The notes beneath the pieces are model-generated. The model had not been told where the DNA came from. It saw only the letters and a program-made list of their open reading frames with translations, and did not search any database. The position numbers and the translations under genes were made by a program. Positions 53,862 through 63,873 of a stretch of DNA of 64,000 nucleotides are shown one piece after another. Positions within the stretch are counted from its first letter, which is position 1; the number at the start of each line of letters is the position of its first letter. Source of the DNA: a virus (Duplodnaviria > Heunggongvirae > Uroviricota > Caudoviricetes); IMG/VR virus record IMGVR_UViG_3300037484_000445, positions 131,863 through 195,862 of that record, one strand, 5' to 3'.

Positions 53862-54434
53862 ATGGCCGAAGTCAAACCGGACTTTTTGACCGAATGCAAC
53901 AACCTCAAAGTCCCTTTTCAGGACTTTTTTGAGGCCTTTTGCTCTCGGTGCCTTCAGAAGGATTGCTCACGGAGTCAATCGGGTAAGAGTCGCTTTGAGG
54001 CTCGGGTGTCCACTTGGGAGCAACGCTTGTTCACCGCTGTCCCTCGTATGGACCCTTCAGATGAGCGTTTTTCTAAGATCAACACTCAACACTTCGTGGG
54101 CATTGATGTGGGTGGTCCAAATGCAACCACTTCTTGGGTGGATCCCCGAGCAATCGAGACGACAAAAACCATCTCTATACCGGCTCCACAGCCGTCGGTG
54201 GAATCCCGATCCCTTCCAGTTGTGGTCCCATCGACAAATTCACCTAAATTGGAGGAAAAACCAATTGTCCAGGCCAATGGGCTGGTAAATACACCGAATC
54301 GTCCGGGACAAATGGTGGGGGGAGCTGCTCAAAAACCTGCTGTTCCGGTGTCTGATCCTTGGCAGCCCACACAGCCTATCAAGCCTGGCGAGGTTGTTGT
54401 TAAGCCTGGTGCCAAAATTAAGCTGGGCCGTTGA
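53862..54434 (+). CDS. Hypothetical protein (Cys-rich N-terminus, Pro-rich tail)
   Basis: FCSRCLQKDC motif; 190-aa ORF. Confidence 0.7.
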   Translation: MAEVKPDFLTECNNLKVPFQDFFEAFCSRCLQKDCSRSQSGKSRFEARVSTWEQRLFTAVPRMDPSDERFSKINTQHFVGIDVGGPNATTSWVDPRAIETTKTISIPAPQPSVESRSLPVVVPSTNSPKLEEKPIVQANGLVNTPNRPGQMVGGAAQKPAVPVSDPWQPTQPIKPGEVVVKPGAKIKLGR

Positions 54435-54451: not shown

Positions 54452-54613
54452 ATGGAGTTCTCTGTTTACTGTATGCCGGATAAGCGTGTCGTCGTTGTGA
54501 CCAAGCGTGAGGTAGGCGAGGATTGTTCCAAGATTCGCCAAACCTCAGGCAACCGCATCTTGACGGACGAAAAGACGGGTCCTGATAGCGACGACGTTCA
54601 CGAATCCACCTAG
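54452..54613 (+). CDS. DUF2997-like small protein
   Basis: AGGAGG SD; about 53 aa with 'G.DC' motif, adjacent to DUF1257-like and Ycf46-like genes. Confidence 0.6.
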   Translation: MEFSVYCMPDKRVVVVTKREVGEDCSKIRQTSGNRILTDEKTGPDSDDVHEST

Positions 54614-54642
54614 GGCGTAAGCCCCCTCAAAAAGGAAGTGTT

Positions 54643-54987
54643 ATGTCTCACCGGATCACCTATGAGTCCAAGATTGTTGACCGCGACCTAGCTGTTGCGG
54701 CTCTAAAGTCGTTGAATGTGGCCTATCAAGACCTCAACAACGGCATTCTGAAAATCACCAGTGGCCCCCTCAACAGGGCCACCATCAACCTCACCACGGG
54801 CAAGATCGAATCGGATTCGGATTGGAGCCACTCCGAGCACATCAATTTGCTCAGAATTGCCTACACTGAAGCCGACGCACGAAGGGATTACAACCGAACT
54901 GGTGTGTCCATCGTTAGTCGCCAAGTCGTGAAGTATCAGGGCGTGGAAGGTGTTGTGCTTCTGAATTGCCATCGCGCTGTAGGTTGA
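54643..54987 (+). CDS. DUF1257 (Ycf35-like) protein
   Basis: MSH......I.D..L...AL..L, DSDW, L..AY......G pattern. Confidence 0.75.
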   Translation: MSHRITYESKIVDRDLAVAALKSLNVAYQDLNNGILKITSGPLNRATINLTTGKIESDSDWSHSEHINLLRIAYTEADARRDYNRTGVSIVSRQVVKYQGVEGVVLLNCHRAVG

Positions 54988-55003
54988 ACAAGTATCGTTA
55001 GTT

Positions 55004-55040
55004 ACCAAAGGGTTCTATCGAACAGATAGGACCCTTTGGT
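55004..55040 (+). terminator. 16-bp hairpin (terminator or regulatory) overlapping a GGTGTA motif
   Basis: ACCAAAGGGTTCTATC / GATAGGACCCTTTGGT with one G-U pair. Confidence 0.6.
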
Positions 55041-55043
55041 GTA
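55038..55043 (+). promoter_or_regulatory. GGTGTA promoter motif
   Basis: 15 nt before ATG 55059. Confidence 0.6.
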
Positions 55044-55058
55044 TGTGTGGGTTAAGTC

Positions 55059-56612
55059 ATGCACCCAGACCTTAAGTTCTGCTTCCGCTCATTGAGCCGT
55101 TTCATCTACTATGTCACAGATGAAGAAGACCGGTTCATTCGAGAAATCCGAGAGATGCTCAAGGACTATGCCCCTCGGACTCACGTGTACAACGCTGCCT
55201 TTGGTTTGATGTCCATCGACGCTTTGATGGAGGATTGGCGAAGTCGTGTACACAAGGAATCCCCTTCACCTGGGATTCATGACGCTCTGATCAATATCTA
55301 CAAGGAAGACCCGCGCCGAGAGCAGAACTTCTACATCATCACAGATCCTGAGCAGTGGTTGACCGATGCCCATGTGGTCCGACGGATCCTAAACATCGTT
55401 CACCAGCAACAAGCGAACACCACCACAGTCAAGTTCTTAGTGTTTGTTGGTCCTCGATTGGTTCTTCCTCGGGCACTTCAACCTTACCTTGAAGTGATTC
55501 ATGACCAAGGGTTGTCCGAAGACGACATTCGAGAGATCGTCGAGCCCACGTGCAACCGTGTCAATGTCTCAATGTCGGCAAATCTTGTCAACTCTATGAA
55601 GGGTTTGACATCCTATGGCGTTGGGACGGCTCTCAACCAAAGCCTGATTTTGAGTAAGCGTGAGCACGGTGTTCATCGTGTCGATCCCAGACACTTCATG
55701 GACTACAAGCGGCGGCAATTACGTAAGACGGACCTTTTGAGCTATGTGGACGTTTCGGACTACACCTTCGAACAAGTCGGTGGGCTTCACCGGTTTAAGG
55801 CGTGGATCCAAAAGCACAAAGCCGCTTGGACCGAAGAAGGCCAGAAGTTTGGCCTTATACCACCTAAGGGTGTATTGCTCGTTGGGGTTTGGGGTTGCGG
55901 TAAGAGCCTATCCGTGAAGGCTTTGGGAAACGCTTGGCGCCTGCCCGTGATTCAGATGGACATGGGACGTCTTCGAACGAGTCTCGTGGGTGAATCAGAA
56001 GCGAATGTTCTCAGAGCCACGAGCATTATCGAATCCGTGGCCCCTTGCATTCTTTGGTTGGATGAAGCCGAGAAGGGCCTCTCTGGGGGTAAGTCTTCGA
56101 ATATGTCTGATTCCGGGACAACCGCTCGCATGATTGGGCACCTATCGACGTGGCTACAGGAAACCAAGGCCCCGATTTGCCTCGCTATGACGGCCAACTC
56201 CTTACATGACCTTCCGGTGGAGTTCATACGTCGTGTGAATGAGCGCTTCTTTTTCGACATGCCTACGGAAGACGAACGTGTGGACATCTTGAAAATTCAC
56301 CTCCGGAAGCAACGGCAGGACACGGATAGCTTGAATTTGGCTGAGTTGGCCGCTGATGCCAAGCAGATGGTCGGCAGTGAGATAGAACAAGCCATCCAAG
56401 CGGCCCTTGTTGAGTCCTTCGACGCCGGTTGCGAGAGCCTTAGCCCAGAAATTCTCTCCAACGAACTCCGGAAAAAGCCCAGAATCTTCAAAACGTTGTC
56501 AGAAGAGCTCAAGGAGATCTTGAATTGGGTGGGATGGGACCCAGAATGTCAAGACGGCGTTCGTGCCCGGTGGGCGTCGGAACCCTCCCCTGAATTCCTT
56601 GCGAGTCGATAA
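55059..56612 (+). CDS. Ycf46-like AAA+ ATPase
   Basis: TDEEDR N-terminus, VGGLHRFKAW, GVWGCGKS, VGESEAN, LWLDEAEKG, DSGT, TWLQE, TAN. Confidence 0.9.
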   Translation: MHPDLKFCFRSLSRFIYYVTDEEDRFIREIREMLKDYAPRTHVYNAAFGLMSIDALMEDWRSRVHKESPSPGIHDALINIYKEDPRREQNFYIITDPEQWLTDAHVVRRILNIVHQQQANTTTVKFLVFVGPRLVLPRALQPYLEVIHDQGLSEDDIREIVEPTCNRVNVSMSANLVNSMKGLTSYGVGTALNQSLILSKREHGVHRVDPRHFMDYKRRQLRKTDLLSYVDVSDYTFEQVGGLHRFKAWIQKHKAAWTEEGQKFGLIPPKGVLLVGVWGCGKSLSVKALGNAWRLPVIQMDMGRLRTSLVGESEANVLRATSIIESVAPCILWLDEAEKGLSGGKSSNMSDSGTTARMIGHLSTWLQETKAPICLAMTANSLHDLPVEFIRRVNERFFFDMPTEDERVDILKIHLRKQRQDTDSLNLAELAADAKQMVGSEIEQAIQAALVESFDAGCESLSPEILSNELRKKPRIFKTLSEELKEILNWVGWDPECQDGVRARWASEPSPEFLASR

Positions 56613-57763
56613 TGCCCAATAAGTCCCTTGCCGTTGCCACACCTACCGTACTAACCAAGGCACAGCCTAAGTGTTTGGATTTGCTGCGTGCCCGGGCATA
56701 TCTTCAACGAAGTGAGGGCCCAAAGGAGCTTTTCAAGCAAGCTCGTGAGGAGAACTGGTCGGCAGACACCTTAGCTTCCCGCTTGGGGCCGGTGGTCAGC
56801 GAAGTTGTACCGGAAGCGGTTTGCGAAGAAGTAGGCCGTTATTTGGCCGACGAGTACACTCAACTCGGGGACGGGATCTTCATCATTTCGACTGAGACCG
56901 GGAAGATCACAGGAATCATCCGGGAGGCGGATATCTACCTACCTAACCCGGTTCCTCGAGAGGGTAGCAACGCTCTAGCCCAACCAACTCCCAAGATACG
57001 TCCAGACATCGAAGCTGCTATCATCTTTCAGGGCTTCGAGAGCGAACGGGAAACTCGTATTCTGGCAACCTTGGCCGCCAAGGGACATCAGACGGACCTC
57101 TTGCGGGATATGGGGGATCCGCGGCTCTTGGTGGCCACTAGGAGTGGGCGAAGGGCCATTGTTGAATCCCTGGCAGTCTTCGACCCAAAGACTCTGTTGG
57201 AGGCTTGTGGTGGTACCTCAGCGGCCTTCCTTCAGTGTTTCACTATGGTGACTGAGACGCCGGACATATTGGGTCTTGAGTACATCAAGGAGAGTGTCCA
57301 GTCCAAATCCGTGATGGGCGTCCAAGACCCAACAACAACCAACTTGCACCACAACCGAGCGGGAACCCTTCGAGGAGCACTAGTCCAAGGTTGGGTACGG
57401 GAGATCGCCGGAGCTCTATCCCGTGCTGGGGAACGCTTTGCCAAAGCCTTGAACGTGGCTGAGCTTGGGAGAATCCCCGGTGTTTGGGTGGCATCCCCTC
57501 ATTTGGTACGACCTATGCGGGAGAATTACCCGAACCTAGCGGTATTACCGGTCTCATGTCCGACTTTTTGTGTTACAAAAAATGCCGGGTATCTTAGGGT
57601 ACCACCGGCTTTCGAGACTTTGAGCACTGAGATGTTCGATCGTTGGGAAGCCTCTGCCTACCTGGACTACGAACTTTGGTACGATCCGGCAGCGCTGCAG
57701 TACTTCAAACTCGAGGGGATCAATGAAACCCCGCAAGTTCTTTTGGTAGACTACCCTAGGTAG
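56612..57763 (+). CDS. Hypothetical protein; C-terminal half may be a degenerate HK97-fold capsid paralog
   Basis: TAATG-coupled to the AAA gene; see finding. Confidence 0.6.
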   Translation: MPNKSLAVATPTVLTKAQPKCLDLLRARAYLQRSEGPKELFKQAREENWSADTLASRLGPVVSEVVPEAVCEEVGRYLADEYTQLGDGIFIISTETGKITGIIREADIYLPNPVPREGSNALAQPTPKIRPDIEAAIIFQGFESERETRILATLAAKGHQTDLLRDMGDPRLLVATRSGRRAIVESLAVFDPKTLLEACGGTSAAFLQCFTMVTETPDILGLEYIKESVQSKSVMGVQDPTTTNLHHNRAGTLRGALVQGWVREIAGALSRAGERFAKALNVAELGRIPGVWVASPHLVRPMRENYPNLAVLPVSCPTFCVTKNAGYLRVPPAFETLSTEMFDRWEASAYLDYELWYDPAALQYFKLEGINETPQVLLVDYPR

Positions 57764-58014
57764 TGGCCTACTATTCCTTCGTTGTCACCGCCAAGCACCC
57801 TGTCGGCATTCCTCAGCCCCTAGTCCTTTTGGACACGGGTCATAACGTCTTCAATGCTGAGATTTCCGGCATTGAAGAGTTCAAGTCTCTCCTTGAGAAC
57901 GAGGACGTCGTCATCAAAGAGATGCATCGCTTGGACGCTCACGAAGCTGGGTCTTCTACAGATCTGCTTCTAGACGGTGCTATGGATCTCTTGTTAGGTG
58001 ACGTGTCGGTGTAG
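57763..58014 (+). CDS. Small acidic hypothetical protein
   Basis: GTG start overlapping the upstream TAG. Confidence 0.6.
   Translation: MAYYSFVVTAKHPVGIPQPLVLLDTGHNVFNAEISGIEEFKSLLENEDVVIKEMHRLDAHEAGSSTDLLLDGAMDLLLGDVSV
58008..58013 (+). promoter_or_regulatory. GGTGTA promoter motif
   Basis: 12 nt before ATG 58026. Confidence 0.6.
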
Positions 58015-58025
58015 TATCGAAGTGA

Positions 58026-58445
58026 ATGTCGGATCGAGTACCTGTACGCATAACCTTCGTTGAGGGTGGTTCTCTAACGTTTGTGGGGGAACCATTCGAG
58101 TCCGGGACAGCTGTTTTCACGGGTCAATTGTCTCTGGTCGAGCTTCCAGGCAAGCCTGACGGCCTGTATCCTTTGGTAGCACCTACCACTGTTCCGAATG
58201 AAGGGTTGCTAGAGATCCAGCTATTGCCTGCGGGTAACTCCCACGACAACCAGATCAAGGGGAATGCAAAGCTCAAGGTTCTAAACGACAGTGTCGTTGG
58301 TTGGGTGCCTTTGACTGACGTCTATCACGCCCGCCGCTTGGAATTCCTACCCGCTGAAATAACTGACACTTCGGCAGAGGGACCCCTTAAGGGACCTCCT
58401 GAAAAGACCGTATTGGATTGGGTACTAGGTGACGACCCTTTCTAG
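58026..58445 (+). CDS. Hypothetical protein
   Basis: 139-aa ORF with the upstream motif. Confidence 0.65.
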   Translation: MSDRVPVRITFVEGGSLTFVGEPFESGTAVFTGQLSLVELPGKPDGLYPLVAPTTVPNEGLLEIQLLPAGNSHDNQIKGNAKLKVLNDSVVGWVPLTDVYHARRLEFLPAEITDTSAEGPLKGPPEKTVLDWVLGDDPF

Positions 58446-58530
58446 CTGATACGGTGTGCCAAACAATGTCCTAACTCAATAGATTTCAAGGGGTTAGGAC
58501 GTCTCATCAGGGTAGCCGTCTCTGAGGGTT

Positions 58531-58536
58531 GGTGTA
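58531..58536 (+). promoter_or_regulatory. GGTGTA promoter motif
   Basis: 26 nt before ATG 58563; the spacer contains an AGGAG SD. Confidence 0.65.
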
Positions 58537-58562
58537 TATATAGGGCACCAGGAGTTGAACCA

Positions 58563-60920
58563 ATGAAATTAGCCAACAAGTATTTTCTACTAAGCCAAAC
58601 CGTAGCCAAGACTCAAGCAGTCGCAAAGCCTGTTGATGTTCCCACGAATCATGTTTGCGTGATCGACTGCAGCGGGTCAATGTCCTGGGATCTGCCGAAG
58701 ATTCGTGAGCACTTGAAGCGTCGTATCCGAACGCTATTTGGCCAGAAGGATACCCTCAGCATCATCTGGTTCTCCGGTCGTGGCCAGTTCGGAACTTTGC
58801 TCGAAGCCGAGCCCGTGGCAACCCTCACGGACCTCAAGGCAGTGGAGGCTTCTATCGATCGTTGGCTCAAGCCAATCGGCCTAACAGGTTTCAAGGAACC
58901 CCTCGAAGAAGCGGCCAAGTTGGTTCAACGCGTAGCCAAAAAAGATGGCGTCTACAGTCTCTTCTTTCTTTCCGATGGTTGCGATAACGCCTGGCAGCAC
59001 AGTGAGATCCTGCAAGCCATCGAAAAGGCGGCGGGGCTATTCAACAGCGCCACCATCGTGGAGTACGGATACTATGCGGACCGTCGTCTCCTCACGCAAA
59101 TGGCGGAGAAGTTCGGTGGCGTTCACGTATTTTCGGAGGATTTCCCTCGATTCGAACCGTCGTTCGACGCCGCTATGAAGCGTCAGACCTCGAATGCCCC
59201 AAAGGTCGAGGTTTTCGTGGGTGCTGTCATCAATGACTTCGCTTTCGCTCTCGTGGGCGACGATCTCTTGACCTTCTCTGTAGAGCAGGGTCGTGTCTTC
59301 GTTCCTGATACGGTGGATAAAGTTTGGTACGTGGCGACGTCGGGCAAAGAGGTCGCCAAAGATGAGGCCGCTCTTTATGCCGCTATGTCGCTCTTTGCCC
59401 AACGGGTCAATAGTGATGTCGTTTGGGAGACCCTCAAAGCTACAGGGGATGTACGCTTCATCAACCAGTTCTCGACTTGCTTCGGCAAGCAGAACTTCAG
59501 CACTTTCGTAGACGAGACGAAGGCTGCTGCTTTCAATACACAGCTTCGATTGGCCGACGGCCAAGACTTCAATCTCGTGCCGGCGGATGATGCCTTCACG
59601 ATCTTCGATCTCCTCGAGACTCTCCAGGCAAACCCCGAGAACTTGCTGCTCCTCCATAGTAAGGACTTCAAGTACACGAAGATCGGTCGCAGCGTTGTGG
59701 ATGCTGATGAGACCCTGACGAAGGAGGAGCAAGCCCAGGTCGAAGCTATCACGGCGAAGATGGCCAGCGTTAGTAGGGACGCCAAGAAGCTTGCTGCTCT
59801 TCAAGCGGAAATCACGGCGATTACGGCGAACAAGCCCAAAGCCCTAAAGTTCACGGAAGAAGCCAATCCCAAGGGAGTGCCTGTTCAAGCCCTCATCTTC
59901 AACAAGGAGCGGCCGAACATCTCCGTTCAGACTCAGCGTTTTGGCACGGTCAACCTTTCTGAGCGCCTACCCAAGGAAGCTCCTTGGATGAGTAAGGTTC
60001 CGGTGGACTTCCCGACCAGCATCTTCCGCAACTACACGATCGTCAAGGATGGGATCATCAACGTCAAACAGTTACCCTTACGTCTGACCGGCGCCACCGT
60101 TCGTAAGTTGGTCGAGCAAGGGATGCCCTTCAAGGCGATTCTCGGTTGTGATGGTGAGAGCGCCGAGGTTGCTCGCACTCGAGTCAAGAAGGCCGCCCAG
60201 GAGCGAGAGGTGCCGGTGCTCATTGACCTGACCCTCATCCCGGTTCTCAACCGCAAGATGGTTTCGGCCGTCTCGGCTCGTGAAGCCTTTGAATCCGAAG
60301 TTGCCCTTCTTGAACTACAAGCAGCCAAGAAGGTATTCGATAACGCCTTCAAGGAACGCTTCCCGTACGTTTCCGAAGGTTTCGTGCAGCGATATGGGGA
60401 TGAAGCCACCAAATGGTTGGATGAGGTAGGTTTGACGGACAAGGGGTTCAATCCTCGGGTCCTGCAGGCTGAAGCCACTGACTTCTACATGGCCAAGGAG
60501 TTAGCTATCACCGTCAAGGGCTACAGCAAGCTGCCTTCAGTCAATGAAGTCCGCGGCAAGATGTCTCCTCCGGCGCCGGGTAAGAAGGCAGCCAAGCCCC
60601 TATCAGGTCCGACGGCGCTCATGGCCAAGTACCTCACCGAACTCGACGGCTATCTAACTGGGGACGAGTACACCAGGACGGCCTCGGACAAGGACAAAGA
60701 TGCCAAGCTCAAGGCGTGGCTCGAAGCCAAGACGCGTCTATCCATCGAACAAGTTCGTGACTTTCAGCGTCAGAAGGCCATGAGGCTGTTCTCGATCATT
60801 GTAGGGCAGACCTGGTTCAAGGAGTTCCCCACTCTCGACGACAACACGCTAAAGGTTACAGTGAATGGCGCGGACTACGATTGCACTGCTGAGTTGTCCG
60901 AGAAAAAGACGCTGATCTAG
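58563..60920 (+). CDS. VWA (von Willebrand A) domain protein
   Basis: VIDCSGSM MIDAS motif, GLTGF, FFLSDG. Confidence 0.85.
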   Translation: MKLANKYFLLSQTVAKTQAVAKPVDVPTNHVCVIDCSGSMSWDLPKIREHLKRRIRTLFGQKDTLSIIWFSGRGQFGTLLEAEPVATLTDLKAVEASIDRWLKPIGLTGFKEPLEEAAKLVQRVAKKDGVYSLFFLSDGCDNAWQHSEILQAIEKAAGLFNSATIVEYGYYADRRLLTQMAEKFGGVHVFSEDFPRFEPSFDAAMKRQTSNAPKVEVFVGAVINDFAFALVGDDLLTFSVEQGRVFVPDTVDKVWYVATSGKEVAKDEAALYAAMSLFAQRVNSDVVWETLKATGDVRFINQFSTCFGKQNFSTFVDETKAAAFNTQLRLADGQDFNLVPADDAFTIFDLLETLQANPENLLLLHSKDFKYTKIGRSVVDADETLTKEEQAQVEAITAKMASVSRDAKKLAALQAEITAITANKPKALKFTEEANPKGVPVQALIFNKERPNISVQTQRFGTVNLSERLPKEAPWMSKVPVDFPTSIFRNYTIVKDGIINVKQLPLRLTGATVRKLVEQGMPFKAILGCDGESAEVARTRVKKAAQEREVPVLIDLTLIPVLNRKMVSAVSAREAFESEVALLELQAAKKVFDNAFKERFPYVSEGFVQRYGDEATKWLDEVGLTDKGFNPRVLQAEATDFYMAKELAITVKGYSKLPSVNEVRGKMSPPAPGKKAAKPLSGPTALMAKYLTELDGYLTGDEYTRTASDKDKDAKLKAWLEAKTRLSIEQVRDFQRQKAMRLFSIIVGQTWFKEFPTLDDNTLKVTVNGADYDCTAELSEKKTLI

Positions 60921-60931
60921 GCCTGTTTCTC

Positions 60932-60937
60932 GGTGTA
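60932..60937 (+). promoter_or_regulatory. GGTGTA promoter motif
   Basis: 18 nt before ATG 60956. Confidence 0.6.
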
Positions 60938-60955
60938 TAGAGGGCGAGAGTTCAC

Positions 60956-61336
60956 ATGAACCCTCGCCCTAGTGCTTTAAAGGTCTTCGCAGCTCTCGAG
61001 ATGAAAGTCGGTGAGTCTGCACACAACGTAATTGAGGCTTTCACCCGAGCATCCGTCGCTAAAGGTCATACCTTCGACGTACTGGACTTTCTCGGTATTC
61101 TGCCCTTAGGGAAGGTCAAGTACGTCCGTTTTCGAACGGACTCACCCAACATTCAAGGGATCTTGGATGATCGCAATGTAGTGTTTTTCAAGAACGGTGA
61201 ATACGTAGCTCAGAACCCGGCTGGTGGGTTTTTGGGTCGTGTCTCAGGGTCTTCTATGCAACAACCTTATGACCCAAGTCTTCATCGAGAGTACCGTGGA
61301 CCCCGTCTTCAACACTGGGAACGGCAGTTCCTTTGA
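60956..61336 (+). CDS. Hypothetical protein
   Basis: 126-aa ORF with the upstream motif. Confidence 0.6.
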   Translation: MNPRPSALKVFAALEMKVGESAHNVIEAFTRASVAKGHTFDVLDFLGILPLGKVKYVRFRTDSPNIQGILDDRNVVFFKNGEYVAQNPAGGFLGRVSGSSMQQPYDPSLHREYRGPRLQHWERQFL

Positions 61337-61358
61337 TAGGCTGCCCTCGAGTAGAACC

Positions 61359-62123
61359 ATGAAAGTCGCAACCATTCAATTTGCTCCTAAGTTCAAGGCT
61401 CGTGAGGCTAACATTAGGTCCATGGTAGCGATGGCCGAGGCTGCCGCTCAAAGCGGCGCCAACTTGATCGTCCTTCCGGAGATGGCCACAACGGGTTACA
61501 GCTTCATGGGGTTTAGCGATGCTATCCCTCATGCCGAATGCATCGACACTTTCCCTCAAGAGATCGACAAGCACTTCATACCGCTATCATTGATGGCCAT
61601 GCAAGTACTGGTCGACAAATACGCAGTGGCCATTGCTTGGGGTACGATGACCGTGAATACTGACCGCACGCAGCTGTACAACAGCCAAGTGCTCATGACG
61701 CCTAACACACTGGTGTCCTATAACAAGGTCAACTCTTGGGGAAATGACTACCTTTGGGCAACCGAAGGATCTTCGAGTCCACCGATTGTGACCTTCATGG
61801 GCAAACGTGTTGGGCTACTTATCTGTCGAGATGTTCGAGACAAGGGATCGAAGGGATCAGGCCTCGAGGACTTTTACGAGAAGGGTGACGCCGACCTCGT
61901 CTGCTTCTCTTCAAATTTTGGTAAAGGTGGCTTCCCACCTGTGTCTTGGATTAACTTCGCCAAAGACAATGAAACCTGGTTCATTGTCTCAAATCGTTAT
62001 GGCCTTGAAGAGCACAACGACTTCGGACTCGGAGGGATTTGCGTTATCGAGCCTTCGGGTAAGGTCCAGTGCGAAGGGCTCCTATGGGATAAGCCTTGCA
62101 TCGTTTATGCTGACATCCCCTAG
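61359..62123 (+). CDS. Carbon-nitrogen hydrolase (nitrilase superfamily amidase)
   Basis: MKVATIQF start; catalytic triad LPEM (E), YNK (K), LICRD (C); SNRYG.E. Confidence 0.9.
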   Translation: MKVATIQFAPKFKAREANIRSMVAMAEAAAQSGANLIVLPEMATTGYSFMGFSDAIPHAECIDTFPQEIDKHFIPLSLMAMQVLVDKYAVAIAWGTMTVNTDRTQLYNSQVLMTPNTLVSYNKVNSWGNDYLWATEGSSSPPIVTFMGKRVGLLICRDVRDKGSKGSGLEDFYEKGDADLVCFSSNFGKGGFPPVSWINFAKDNETWFIVSNRYGLEEHNDFGLGGICVIEPSGKVQCEGLLWDKPCIVYADIP

Positions 62124-62596
62124 AGTTCGGCGATTACGGTTCGAACCAGACGCATCATAGCCAACCCAGCTGTCTCGGGTTCGGCTAGGACTTGCTTGGT
62201 GATCATCTTTTTGAAATCCGGGGTTCTGTCAAGTTTGTACGGTGTGAACCCGAAGGAAATATGCGCTTTGGGGCCCTGCATGGCTATGGTCATGCTGAAG
62301 GCATCAATTCTTTGACGCGGTGCCATGAAATAAAAAATACGCCCTTGGCTTTCACTGGCATTGATGTAGTAGCGTTCGCCTTGGCTCTTCTTCAGCAGTT
62401 CGAGGATCTTTGGGATGAATACCCCAACAGAATCACGGGCTTCGTCCAAGGACACCAGACTTTTAGTGTCTGGCACATAGGCCTGGCGATCCTTGAAGAA
62501 AGCCGCCAAAAGGGCTTGAGGTATGGAAGGCTGCCAGCCGCTTGATATGAGCTTGTGGGCAAATCGTGACGCAACTCTTTGGGCTTGGCGTGACAT
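62120..62596 (-). CDS. Hypothetical protein with N-terminal RVASRF motif
   Basis: Convergent with the nitrilase gene (shared CTAG); protein-like composition. Confidence 0.65.
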   Translation of the reverse strand: MSRQAQRVASRFAHKLISSGWQPSIPQALLAAFFKDRQAYVPDTKSLVSLDEARDSVGVFIPKILELLKKSQGERYYINASESQGRIFYFMAPRQRIDAFSMTIAMQGPKAHISFGFTPYKLDRTPDFKKMITKQVLAEPETAGLAMMRLVRTVIAEL

Positions 62597-62625
62597 CACT
62601 TGTGGAGTCTCAAAAAAGCTTTCGT

Positions 62626-62631
62626 GGTGTA
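62626..62631 (+). promoter_or_regulatory. GGTGTA promoter motif
   Basis: 12 nt before the clpX ATG; no SD. Confidence 0.65.
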
Positions 62632-62643
62632 TAGGCGCCTAAG

Positions 62644-63873
62644 ATGGATTCTTGCACAATTTGTGACCGCCCCAGAAACGAGGTTAAGGTCCTAGTCCCG
62701 GCTAAGAAGCCAGGGAAGTTTCTGTGTGATCGCTGTTTTGACGCAGCTAAGGTTCTCTTGCAGGGGGCCCCTAAGACGGCAAGCAAGAAAGAGGAAGCCC
62801 CCCTTCAAAAACCTCGAGAAATCAAAGTCTCGTTGGATGCTTACGTGATATCTCAGGAGCCGGCCAAGGTGGATATGTCCGTAGCCATCTACGAGCACTA
62901 CAAGCGCCGAGATGCCCTGAGGAAGAGTATCGACTTAGGTGTCGAGATCCAGAAGAGCAACATCCTATTGATGGGACCCAGCGGAACCGGAAAGACCCAG
63001 ATAGCTCGTTCAATTGCTCGTATGCTGGGTGTACCCTTCTACGTCGGCGATGCCACTAAATTGACTTCAGCAGGTTACGTGGGAGATGACGTAGAATCCT
63101 TGCTTCAAGGGCTTTTGGCTGATTGCGACAATGATGTGGACCGGGCTCAGTGGGGTATCATCTTCATTGATGAGTTCGACAAGCTAGCGAGGAAGAGTGG
63201 TCGAGGGGCGACAGGGTTCAGGGATGTTTCGGGAGAAGGGGTTCAACAAGCCCTCTTGAAAATCTTGGAGGGCTCCAAAGTCCAAGTACCCTTAGGGTCT
63301 GGTTTGATGAACACCTCTTGCGTCAGCCTGGATACTACCAACGTGCTCTTCATCTGTGCAGGATCTTTTGCCGGCATAGATGATGTCGTCAAGCGCCGGG
63401 TCAATAAGAGTGTGAAGATGGGTTTTGGTGCGGAGGCTCGGAAAGATCTGACAGATGCTGACGTGTACAGTGCCGTCAGTGAGGATGACATCCTCGAGTT
63501 TGGATTCATTCCAGAATTGTTGGGGCGTATTCCGATTCACACAACGACTTTACCTTTGACTGAGGATGAGATGGTTCGCATTTTGACTGAACCTAAGGAT
63601 GCCCTCATCAAGCAATTCCAAGCACTTTTCAAGTTGGATGGCGTGAATCTGACTTTCGAGGATGATGCCCTTCGGGCGATCGGTCGGGAGGCCACAACTC
63701 GTCCGACGGGAGCGCGAGCTCTTAGGAGTATTGTCACGAAAATACTAAAGCCTTTCGCCTACGATACCCCCAGTGACCCGGGGATTCTTGAGATTCGTGT
63801 GACCAAGGACTTGGTTGAAGGTAAGGGGGAAGCCCTTATCACACGTGAAACAGCCTTGAAGCCCGAGTCTTAA
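62644..63873 (+). CDS. clpX: ClpX-like ATP-dependent unfoldase
   Basis: CxxC...CxxC Zn domain, KSNILLMGPSGTGKT, GYVG, IDEFDK, RDVSGEGVQQALLK, MGF loop, TGARALR. Confidence 0.95.
   Translation: MDSCTICDRPRNEVKVLVPAKKPGKFLCDRCFDAAKVLLQGAPKTASKKEEAPLQKPREIKVSLDAYVISQEPAKVDMSVAIYEHYKRRDALRKSIDLGVEIQKSNILLMGPSGTGKTQIARSIARMLGVPFYVGDATKLTSAGYVGDDVESLLQGLLADCDNDVDRAQWGIIFIDEFDKLARKSGRGATGFRDVSGEGVQQALLKILEGSKVQVPLGSGLMNTSCVSLDTTNVLFICAGSFAGIDDVVKRRVNKSVKMGFGAEARKDLTDADVYSAVSEDDILEFGFIPELLGRIPIHTTTLPLTEDEMVRILTEPKDALIKQFQALFKLDGVNLTFEDDALRAIGREATTRPTGARALRSIVTKILKPFAYDTPSDPGILEIRVTKDLVEGKGEALITRETALKPES

Follow-up and report, generated by a model that had tools for sequence, protein, structure and literature searches.

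The genes between positions 54452 and 63873 of the window, a 64,000-nucleotide stretch from the 452-kb genome of an uncultured phage, appear to be divided among five separate units that lie along a conserved, replication-side backbone (Table 1). An original prediction, made from the DNA alone, had placed here two AAA+ ATPases (Ycf46-like and ClpX), a MIDAS VWA protein and a nitrilase-family protein, and all four proved to be real genes on the plus strand. Of the small partner genes that it added, g60 and g114 are conserved. The plus-strand ORF at 62192-62545 is a shadow: the conserved gene there is m159 on the minus strand, which has an orthologue on the same relative strand in one related locus (L012; 46% identical, E 3e-42).

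Table 1. Genes and promoter-like motif at the locus, in window coordinates
Feature	Position	Strand	Description
g190	53862-54434	+	Conserved, directly after PolA; Cys-rich N-terminus, low-complexity tail
g60	54452-54613	+	Small protein, putative remote DUF2997 homologue
g114	54643-54987	+	Putative remote DUF1257 (Ycf35-type) homologue
GGTGTA promoter-like motif	55038-55043	+	15 nt before the AAA+ ATG
Ycf46-family classical AAA+ ATPase	55059-56612	+	~230-aa N-domain and one Cdc48-D2-like ATPase ring module
u383	56612-57763	+	Predicted HK97-fold (capsid/encapsulin-like) protein with ~170-aa helical N-domain
u83	57763-58014	+	Small acidic protein; start overlaps u383 stop
u139	58026-58445	+	Orphan gene; own GGTGTA at 58008
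VWA785	58563-60920	+	MIDAS VWA and beta-sandwich protein; mobile accessory gene
u126	60956-61336	+	Conserved; usually just upstream of the CN-hydrolase
CN-hydrolase (nitrilase superfamily)	61359-62123	+	Catalytic E-K-C intact
m159	62120-62599	-	Conserved minus-strand gene, divergent from clpX
ClpX	62644-63873	+	Has C4 zinc finger, GYVG pore loop and MGF loop for ClpP docking; RKH loop missing

Conserved gene order and a genome-wide promoter-like motif

The order PolA-g190-DUF2997-DUF1257-AAA-u383...CN-hydrolase...ClpX is kept in 42 related huge-phage loci, from a clade of uncultured phages of roughly 300-450 kb. This order belongs to a collinear backbone that begins at the replisome (SNF2, DnaB, primase, PolA) and extends over more than 20 kb, and the gaps of 1-7 kb in the backbones of relatives hold the thymidylate synthases ThyA/ThyX. 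Both g190, at the same position throughout, and the AAA+ gene were found in 42/42 loci, u383 in 40 (plus one by hhalign), g114 in 36 (by tblastn) and the CN-hydrolase in 35. ClpX lies in 25/42 flanks and just beyond the flank in four of five more, u126 is present in 25/42 relatives, and u83 gave tblastn matches at the same position in 23/42. The synteny table contains the VWA gene in 2/42 loci and u139 in 0/42; the latter had no orthologue at the same position among the 42 relatives and no family match, and its one marginal tblastn match lies elsewhere in locus L048 (E 0.001). Pfam and PHROG searches with g190 gave no match, and no family match was obtained for u83 or u126.

The hexamer GGTGTA stands 12-26 nt before five ATGs, at 55059, 58026, 58563, 60956 and 62644. 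Its raw count in the window is not above chance (32 versus 26 +/- 4.8 expected), but its placement is. Among the 317 copies in the genome, 38% stand ahead of an ATG with which an ORF of 80 aa or more begins, compared with a median of 9% and a maximum of 15% for permuted hexamers, and 30% lie in sequence called intergenic, which makes up 6.8% of the genome. GGTGTA precedes about 120 genes, including those for a DNA methylase and the SNF2 helicase, and is found upstream of the AAA orthologue in 34/42 relatives despite diverged flanks. GGTGTA is thus a genome-wide and clade-wide promoter-like signal. The predicted sharing of the motif by these genes was confirmed, but not its use as a mark of co-regulation: because it precedes ~120 genes of every kind, it does not define 54452-63873 as a regulon. 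Since one promoter class is common to all units, they may nevertheless be made simultaneously.

A Ycf46-family ATPase behind two small conserved genes

The AAA+ protein matched PF00004 (E 3.5e-18) and phrog_8638 (E 2.4e-88). Its nearest Atlas clusters were bacterial and named 'ycf46 family', with a feature score of 0.99 and TM of 0.85-0.88 over residues 1-512; these matches extend to the full-length architecture, including the N-terminal domain of ~230 aa. The best PDB profile match was Cdc48/p97 D2 (141 bits). Walker A (G279-x-G281-K282-S283), Walker B (D335-E336), the sensor-1 residue N380 and the Arg finger R392 were invariant. Read against p97 D2, what we take to be the pore-1 position is S-L-V-G, without an aromatic residue, so that the ATPase may not thread substrates at all.

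Upstream, g60 is kept in position across relatives as an ORF of 57-62 aa. Matches to PF11211 (DUF2997) were obtained for 7/21 of its orthologues (best E 1.7e-5) and matches to PF06868 (DUF1257) for 9/21 orthologues of g114 (best E 1.7e-4), with no rival family matching more than two members; the window copies gave none even at E 10. Both assignments are therefore transitive, made through the orthologues and not through the window copies, and the two proteins are best regarded as putative remote homologues. DUF1257 was not found in 301 genomes of one phylum that were searched.

Ycf46 is highly conserved in cyanobacteria and takes its name from a plastid reading frame. In Synechocystis it is encoded by slr0374, within the stress operon slr0373-slr0374-slr0376, whose function is unknown (PMC7496141), and the DUF2997-DUF1257(ycf35) gene pair is a known cyanobacterial cluster (PMC4284462). 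The phage locus resembles that pair in that the candidate homologues of both lie directly upstream of the AAA+ gene. Unlike cellular Ycf46, the present protein is phage-encoded, and its gene follows that of a DNA polymerase and is followed by an overlapping gene for a predicted HK97-fold protein. We found no description in the literature of an HK97-fold partner for Ycf46.

The fixed partner of the ATPase has a predicted capsid fold

The start codon of u383 overlaps the AAA+ stop codon (TAATG), and u383 adjoins the AAA gene in 41/41 loci; the two genes are translationally coupled. The AF2 model of u383 (pLDDT 90.6, pTM 0.75) was compared with three libraries by two aligners, all of which support an HK97 fold. 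With Foldseek, the top 50 PDB matches were all encapsulins or capsid proteins (prob 0.94-1.0), and with VIA-align, run against 48,161 chains, the top 50 were all of the HK97 fold (Z 5.5-8.1; 160-189 residues aligned, within residues 169-375). T4 gp24 was among the matches (Z 6.7), and those in BFVD were nearly all annotated as major capsid proteins, including phage G gp27. Residues ~169-375 superpose on the P and A domains of HK97 gp5, encapsulins, T4 gp24 and phage G gp27, and the topologies of the P domain (spine helix and sheet) and of the A domain are present in the model. The fold was assigned from a predicted model, the scores are moderate (Z up to 8.1, TM 0.2-0.4) and the sequence shows no link to capsids: u383 had no Pfam capsid match and falls outside PF05065 and the encapsulin sequence families. 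Compared with the shell-forming capsid and encapsulin proteins to which its predicted fold likens it, u383 is set apart by its conserved ~170-aa helical N-domain, its pairing with an AAA+ ATPase and its setting among replication genes.

The possibility that u383 is the major capsid protein (MCP) of the phage was rejected. A scan of the genome with PF05065 returned only the real MCP, which is encoded by a separate gene 48 kb upstream (phrog_2522, E 1e-50) and has no sequence similarity to u383 (hhalign probability 0.8%). We infer that u383 is an additional protein of the capsid fold that does not belong to the virion. A capsid-fold protein as the fixed partner of the ATPase points to a job other than proteostasis. 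As a hexamer, the AAA+ ATPase may assemble, remodel or hold u383, possibly aided by the two small proteins as cofactors, and would do so in the infected cell alongside the replication genes and not in the virion operon.

It is unlikely, on balance, that these genes serve virion assembly instead, with u383 as a minor capsid protein of the vertex or special vertex (cf. T4 gp24), the Ycf46-type ATPase as its chaperone and ClpX acting in morphogenesis. The matches to T4 gp24, phage G gp27 and other capsid proteins would agree with such a role, as would the proposal that ClpA/ClpX of jumbo phages may aid virion assembly (Iyer et al., PMC7824862). However, the 48 kb between u383 and the capsid operon, its place within the replication block throughout the 41 relatives and its dissimilarity in sequence to the MCP argue against it; no GGTGTA stands ahead of the MCP gene, and elsewhere in the genome u383 has no paralogue detectable by sequence. 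A more specific form of the non-virion reading, to which we give distinctly little weight, is that the ATPase and its DUF1257/DUF2997 partners are a machine dedicated to assembling or taking apart a second shell or lattice of the HK97 fold, made of u383, which the phage would build in the cell during replication as an encapsulin-like compartment or scaffold separate from its virion capsid.

A mobile VWA protein, a nitrilase-superfamily enzyme and ClpX

VWA785 matched phrog_2426 (E 5e-181) and scored below the curated cut-offs of Pfam VWA_3 and VWA_2. Foldseek matches of its AF2 model (pLDDT 85.9) were VWA-plus-beta-sandwich proteins; ArnB and the Sec23/24 trunk are its fold neighbours, and it has a large C-terminal region besides. 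The MIDAS is complete, with D35-C-S37-G-S39, T108 and D138 kept in 32 sequences. Homologues that are 34-35% identical occur among unrelated neighbour genes in Ackermannviridae, Straboviridae and other phage groups; the one in Ackermannviridae adjoins NAD-salvage genes. Within the clade, the VWA gene is adjacent in 2/42 relatives and lies elsewhere, 32-230 kb away, in 16, which leaves it unlinked in 16 of the 18 relatives that carry it; two complete relative genomes lack it. Adaptor pairs of VWA proteins and AAA+ ATPases are a feature of the MoxR clade. The encoding of a MIDAS VWA protein near AAA+ genes recalls MoxR-VWA pairs such as RavA-ViaA and CbbQ-CbbO, and group 2.2 jumbo phages carry a MoxR-vWA pair (PMC7824862). 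Unlike in those pairs, there is no MoxR-clade ATPase here (PF07726 is absent from the genome, and the AAA+ proteins encoded nearby are a classical one and ClpX) and in relatives the VWA gene shows no linkage to either AAA+ gene; the suggestion that VWA785 acts as an AAA+ adaptor is not supported.

The CN-hydrolase, 254 aa long from its probable true start at 61359, matched PF00795 (E 6.8e-18; 65 bits against a cut-off of 23.2) and fell below every NCBIfam equivalog cut-off. E41, K123 and C156 were invariant in 27 sequences. The best PDB profile matches were to the archaeal branch of Pyrococcus abyssi nitrilase and PH0642 (87-88 bits, residues 1-223), with the E-K-C triad aligned. The match to the Nta1-type N-terminal amidase (5hyy, 5b62) was weaker and partial, ranking ninth with 46 bits and covering only the N-terminal half (residues 1-133).

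ClpX exceeded the cut-offs of the NCBIfam equivalog NF003745 (471.2 versus 359 bits) and of TIGR00382 (430.7 versus 370.75), and aligned over its full length to E. coli ClpX (8e91). It has the C4 zinc finger at its N-terminus, the GYVG pore-1 loop, Walker A/B and the sensor-II Arg, and C4, C7, C28, C31, G144-Y-V-G147, D176-E177 and R358 do not vary among 16 sequences of the clade. The ClpP-docking loop reads MGF in the window and (M/V/L/I)GF across the clade, with G260-F261-G262 invariant in 16 orthologues. ClpP (PF00574) was found neither in this genome nor in five related ones, of which three are complete. Since the docking loop is kept and the phage has no ClpP, ClpX probably uses that of the host, and a hijack of the host protease is plausible. 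The RKH loop, which is a feature of proteobacterial ClpX that recognises the ssrA tag and is not universal, is missing: SGLMNT and a gap stand opposite GGRKHPQQ of the E. coli protein, and a variable PRGxG loop takes its place in the clade. With this loop lost, ClpX would select a set of substrates different from that of the host enzyme. ClpX of jumbo phages is already known (Iyer et al. 2021, PMC7824862), and the proteins of Agrobacterium phage Atu_ph07 (AUZ94814.1), Bacillus phage G (gp258) and Lak phages are likewise full-length and 42-44% identical by tblastn. The present one differs from jumbo-phage ClpX in its missing RKH loop, and the neighbours differ as well, with clpX of Atu_ph07 sitting by topoisomerase and IF3 genes. 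In relatives, the P-loop of ClpX is interrupted by a Hint/LAGLIDADG intein.

Probably five units rather than one proteostasis module

Taken as a whole, the stretch is probably best explained as five separately promoted units on a replication-proximal backbone and not as one machine; they are regarded as separate because each of the five has its own GGTGTA, and the minus-strand gene splits off clpX. The analysis shows gene identities, folds, synteny and motif statistics; what is said here of function, clients and timing is our inference. The first unit comprises the DUF2997-like and DUF1257-like genes, the Ycf46-family ATPase, u383 and u83; it is the only demonstrably coupled set, the last three genes having overlapping stop and start codons. 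The orphan u139 would be the second. The third would be an adaptor-type VWA/beta-sandwich protein that moves about the genomes of relatives without a MoxR-type AAA+ partner, and the fourth would pair u126 with a putative small-molecule-type amidase of the nitrilase superfamily, found beside thymidylate synthases in relatives. The fifth is ClpX, most likely docking on host ClpP with altered substrate choice.

The original prediction had instead joined the ATPase, VWA protein, amidase and ClpX in one co-regulated system in which the amidase and the VWA adaptor mark host proteins that are then unfolded and degraded or remodelled, and this we consider very improbable. The genes share a strand, a promoter-like motif and tight spacing, ClpX can probably dock ClpP, and the AAA cassette, CN-hydrolase and ClpX stay linked in order in relatives. 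That order is also expected of a functional super-module, and collinearity alone fits both readings. Against a single system stand the genome-wide distribution of GGTGTA, the replication-led backbone with thymidylate synthases in its gaps, the affinity of the hydrolase to PH0642-type nitrilases over Nta1, the capsid-fold neighbour of the ATPase, and the VWA gene, which is scattered or absent in relatives, an outcome that the prediction itself had named as counting against it, and has no MoxR-type partner. The prediction is thus partly supported, in its genes more than in the module, which is mostly unsupported. Least probable of all is that one or more units act in counter-defence, in which case VWA785 might bind or act as a decoy, ClpX might deliver defence proteins to the ClpP of the host and the amidase might break down a signalling molecule: VWA785 is patchy and mobile as is typical of conflict genes, its Ackermannviridae homologue lies beside NAD-salvage genes and the RKH-less ClpX suggests altered specificity, but PADLOC matches were to generic AAA only, and the AAA cassette, hydrolase and ClpX are near-universal in the clade core, unlike typical anti-defence cargo.

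Much of the supposed proteostasis island is therefore ordinary: phage ClpX is documented, the VWA gene is a wandering accessory and the motif is a general promoter. What is noteworthy is the strictly conserved, coupled pair of a Ycf46-family ATPase and a putative non-virion HK97-fold protein, behind putative remote DUF2997 and DUF1257 homologues, in a large clade of 300-450-kb phages. The RKH-less ClpX without a phage ClpP offers a clean system for how a phage retargets a host protease, and u383 would add a case of a capsid fold that serves outside the virion module. As a constant genetic partner whose fold can be recognised, u383 provides a testable client for Ycf46. If the ATPase is indeed a machine for a second shell or lattice of u383, this would be the first time that a concrete substrate, here a capsid-fold protein, is proposed for the widespread Ycf46 family.

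Gene content of the stretch

The stretch under study is best read as five independent units. In the original prediction its genes formed one co-regulated proteostasis module, in which two AAA+ machines (Ycf46-like and ClpX), a VWA protein and an amidase would mark, unfold and degrade or remodel host proteins. ORF listing and Pfam, PHROG and NCBIfam scans confirmed that all the genes named there exist, so the underlying observation was correct; the unifying interpretation was not supported for the VWA protein or for co-regulation. The source is an IMG/VR virus record of 451,925 bp with an estimated completeness of 94%, of which the window takes up bases 131863-195862. Upstream, the same strand encodes a DNA methylase, a SNF2 helicase with an intein, DnaB, a primase-like protein and a family-A DNA polymerase, and the stretch thus starts at the end of a replication block.

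A plus-strand ORF before clpX proved to be a shadow of a real, conserved minus-strand gene, which has an orthologue in one relative (L012, 46% identity) and lacks a GGTGTA of its own. This is the sole minus-strand gene of the stretch, divergent from clpX with a spacer of 45 bp. No match to the 9.4-kb stretch came up by Megablast among 50,697 phage records, the closest metagenomic homologues were 77% identical, and a PADLOC scan returned nothing beyond generic AAA (IetA-like) matches.

Coordinates of the features and tblastn presence in the 42 related loci
Feature	Sequence	Coordinates	Strand	Loci with homologue (n = 42)
g190, 5' of AAA	window			42
g114, DUF1257-like, 5' of AAA	window			36
AAA517, Ycf46-family AAA+	window	55059-56612	+	42
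u383, HK97-fold protein	window	56612-57763	+	40
u83, 3' of u383	window			23
u139	window	58026-58445	+	0
VWA785	window	58563-60920	+	2
u126	window	60956-61336	+	25
CN-hydrolase (most likely start)	window	61359-62123	+	35
Conserved minus-strand gene	window	62120-62599	-	
Shadow ORF	window	62192-62545	+	
ClpX	window	62644-63873	+	25
VWA785 homologue locus, Salmonella phage pertopsoe	L001	5238-10523		
ORF adjoining CN-hydrolase	L007	15965-17095		
ORF adjoining CN-hydrolase	L008	19394-20746		
ClpX orthologue, ~775 aa	L016	18603-20921		
ClpX orthologue, ~775 aa	G005, C1	280076-282361		

Synteny among relatives

The AAA+ profile picked out 42 loci (45-59% identity) on related viral contigs, many of them 250-437 kb long, and all window proteins were compared with these loci by tblastn. 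A single order was found throughout: SNF2-u299-DnaB-primase-u151-PolA-g190-(g60)-g114-AAA-u383-(u83)-gap-(u126)-CN-hydrolase-gap-ClpX. In the most divergent locus the u383 homologue was detected by hhalign alone (95.6%), and one locus stops at the AAA gene, giving an AAA-u383 adjacency of 41/41. In four of five additional genomes examined, ClpX lay slightly outside the flank that had been fetched. The comparison therefore upheld the predicted linkage for AAA, CN-hydrolase and ClpX, which keep one order, and not for the VWA gene, which is scattered. Even for the linked three, the conserved order would fit a functional module and plain collinearity of the backbone alike.

The gaps span ~1 to 7 kb and in relatives hold ThyA or ThyX and other genes, not proteostasis genes. 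Between the AAA cassette and CN-hydrolase, ThyA was found in L006, L017, L024 and L026, and ThyX in L015 and L028. This site is where u139 and VWA785 stand in the present phage, and it is a swap hotspot within an otherwise rigid backbone. A recurrent ORF of 376-450 aa, absent from the window, adjoins CN-hydrolase in relatives and gave weak, sub-threshold matches to the putative zinc metallopeptidase families Peptidase_Mx/Mx1. Among GTDB genomes the AAA+ protein had one match, at 46% identity, on a MAG contig of 205 kb (L049, JBBAQX010000001.1), which may be a mis-binned huge-phage contig in a bacterial MAG; a search of 301 genomes from the phylum of this MAG did not turn up DUF1257.

The GGTGTA motif

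GGTGTA occurs 32 times in the window, with 26 +/- 4.8 expected, and is thus not over-represented. Genome-wide, 30% of its 317 copies fall within the 6.8% of DNA outside gene calls (crude calls of our own), and sense copies cluster 10-30 nt 5' of starts. The ATG of an ORF of 80 aa or more follows 6-44 nt downstream of 38% of copies, compared with a median of 9% and a maximum of 15% for all permuted hexamers in the same test. The motif is kept 5' of the AAA orthologue in 34 of the 42 relatives, where the flanks have otherwise diverged, and it occurs on both strands across the entire genome, before the methylase, SNF2 and many unrelated genes; the major capsid protein (MCP) gene lacks it. These patterns point to a promoter-like signal that is real, shared across the clade and followed by a short leader, standing before ~120 genes. 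Because it marks so many genes, its sharing tells nothing specific about this stretch and does not support the proposed co-regulation. A scan for sigma-70 promoters gave no site where 5.6 were expected, and terminator-like sites were at chance level. In many relatives, among them L012, L014, L018 and L040, a GC-rich hairpin and then a T-run lie just 5' of GGTGTA, ~20-60 nt before the AAA start, which suggests a terminator-promoter junction between the DUF1257 and AAA genes.

The VWA protein, ClpX and CN-hydrolase

VWA785 (785 aa) falls below the Pfam VWA cut-offs but is a member of phrog_2426 (E 5e-181). The proteins matched by its AF2 model (pLDDT 85.9) combine VWA with a beta-sandwich (ArnB/ArnAB, 4fx5, ITIH1 and the Sec23/24 trunk), and the MIDAS residues are conserved; a PDB sequence search gave no match. 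Homologues were found in 18 of the 42 records, adjoining the AAA cassette in only 2 and otherwise lying 32-230 kb from it on either strand, and were absent from two complete genomes. The scattered distribution, together with the lack of any encoded MoxR-clade ATPase, leaves the suggested role of the VWA protein as an AAA+ adaptor without comparative support. Homologues at a greater distance (34-35%) occur commonly among phages, in Ackermannviridae, Straboviridae and further groups, with unrelated neighbours. In Salmonella phage pertopsoe (Ackermannviridae) the homologue lies between two genes annotated as nicotinamide phosphoribosyltransferase and an 'acyl carrier protein' gene, which gives phrog_2426 a different setting that may be informative.

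ClpX scored above two curated equivalog cut-offs and could be aligned over its full length with the E. coli protein. Across 16 ClpX proteins of the clade, invariant features include the zinc finger, GYVG, the Walker motifs, sensor-II and the docking tripeptide [M/L/I/V]GF, whereas a variable loop stands where E. coli ClpX has its RKH loop. Neither this genome nor five relatives, three of which are complete, was found to encode a ClpP family member; with the docking loop retained, this argues that the phage ClpX would use host ClpP. The ClpX proteins of Atu_ph07 and phage G have been noted already, with suggested roles in translocation or assembly (Iyer et al. 2021, PMC7824862), but their neighbouring genes are unlike those here. 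Two relatives have ~775-aa ClpX orthologues because a Hint plus LAGLIDADG homing-endonuclease intein splits the P-loop region.

The E-K-C triad of CN-hydrolase was invariant in 27 orthologues. In the profile search the top rank went to the PH0642/P. abyssi nitrilase (87-88 bits over residues 1-223), followed by further small-molecule amidases and the glutaminase domain of NadE; since Nta1 came ninth, and with a partial match, a role as N-degron editor is not favoured.

The Ycf46-type AAA+ cassette

AAA517 (517 aa) contains a single AAA module of the classical type, for which Cdc48/p97 D2 is the nearest PDB match (profile, 141 bits). Over its full length, including the ~230-aa N-domain, it resembles bacterial ycf46-named clusters (feature score 0.99; TM 0.85-0.88, residues 1-512). 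An intein domain is also present in one homologue, P0014 (690 aa). In Synechocystis, Ycf46 belongs to a stress operon (PMC7496141). Two small ORFs 5' of AAA, g60 and g114, are conserved in size and position. Direct Pfam scans of the small proteins of the stretch, and scans of the whole genome with PF06868 and PF11211, were negative even at E 10. Orthologue by orthologue, DUF1257 was matched by 9/21 g114 orthologues and DUF2997 by 7/21 g60 orthologues, with no competing family; both assignments are made through orthologues only, as the window copies miss both Pfam models. DUF2997-DUF1257(ycf35) is a known gene pair of cyanobacteria (PMC4284462). The AAA neighbourhood of Corndog was rejected as the same cassette, since hhalign found no similarity between the u383 profile and gp95 or between the g114 profile and gp97.

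The u383 gene starts within an overlap with the AAA stop codon. The u383 model, built from 30 orthologues, was confident (pLDDT 90.6, pTM 0.75). Foldseek against the PDB, VIA-align against 48,161 representative chains (run without Foldseek) and Foldseek against BFVD matched residues ~169-375 almost exclusively to HK97-fold proteins: capsids, encapsulins, T4 gp24 and phage G gp27. Scores were moderate (Z up to 8.1; TM 0.2-0.4), yet the unanimity of three libraries makes a predicted HK97 fold persuasive. A profile search of PDB sequences gave no match (best E 0.22). The real MCP is encoded 48 kb upstream (phrog_2522, E 1e-50) and has no sequence relation to u383, so a recent MCP paralogue was rejected. 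The family is small, with 262 clusters at 50% identity among 1.84 billion proteins. One member, P0293, fuses a DUF4379 zinc finger to u383; this looks like an inserted mobile-element ORF and gives no clue to function. Our literature search found no paper on a Ycf46-AAA+/HK97-fold pairing. Taken together, the DUF2997/DUF1257/Ycf46-AAA+/HK97-fold/u83 cassette is genuinely coupled and apparently new to the literature.
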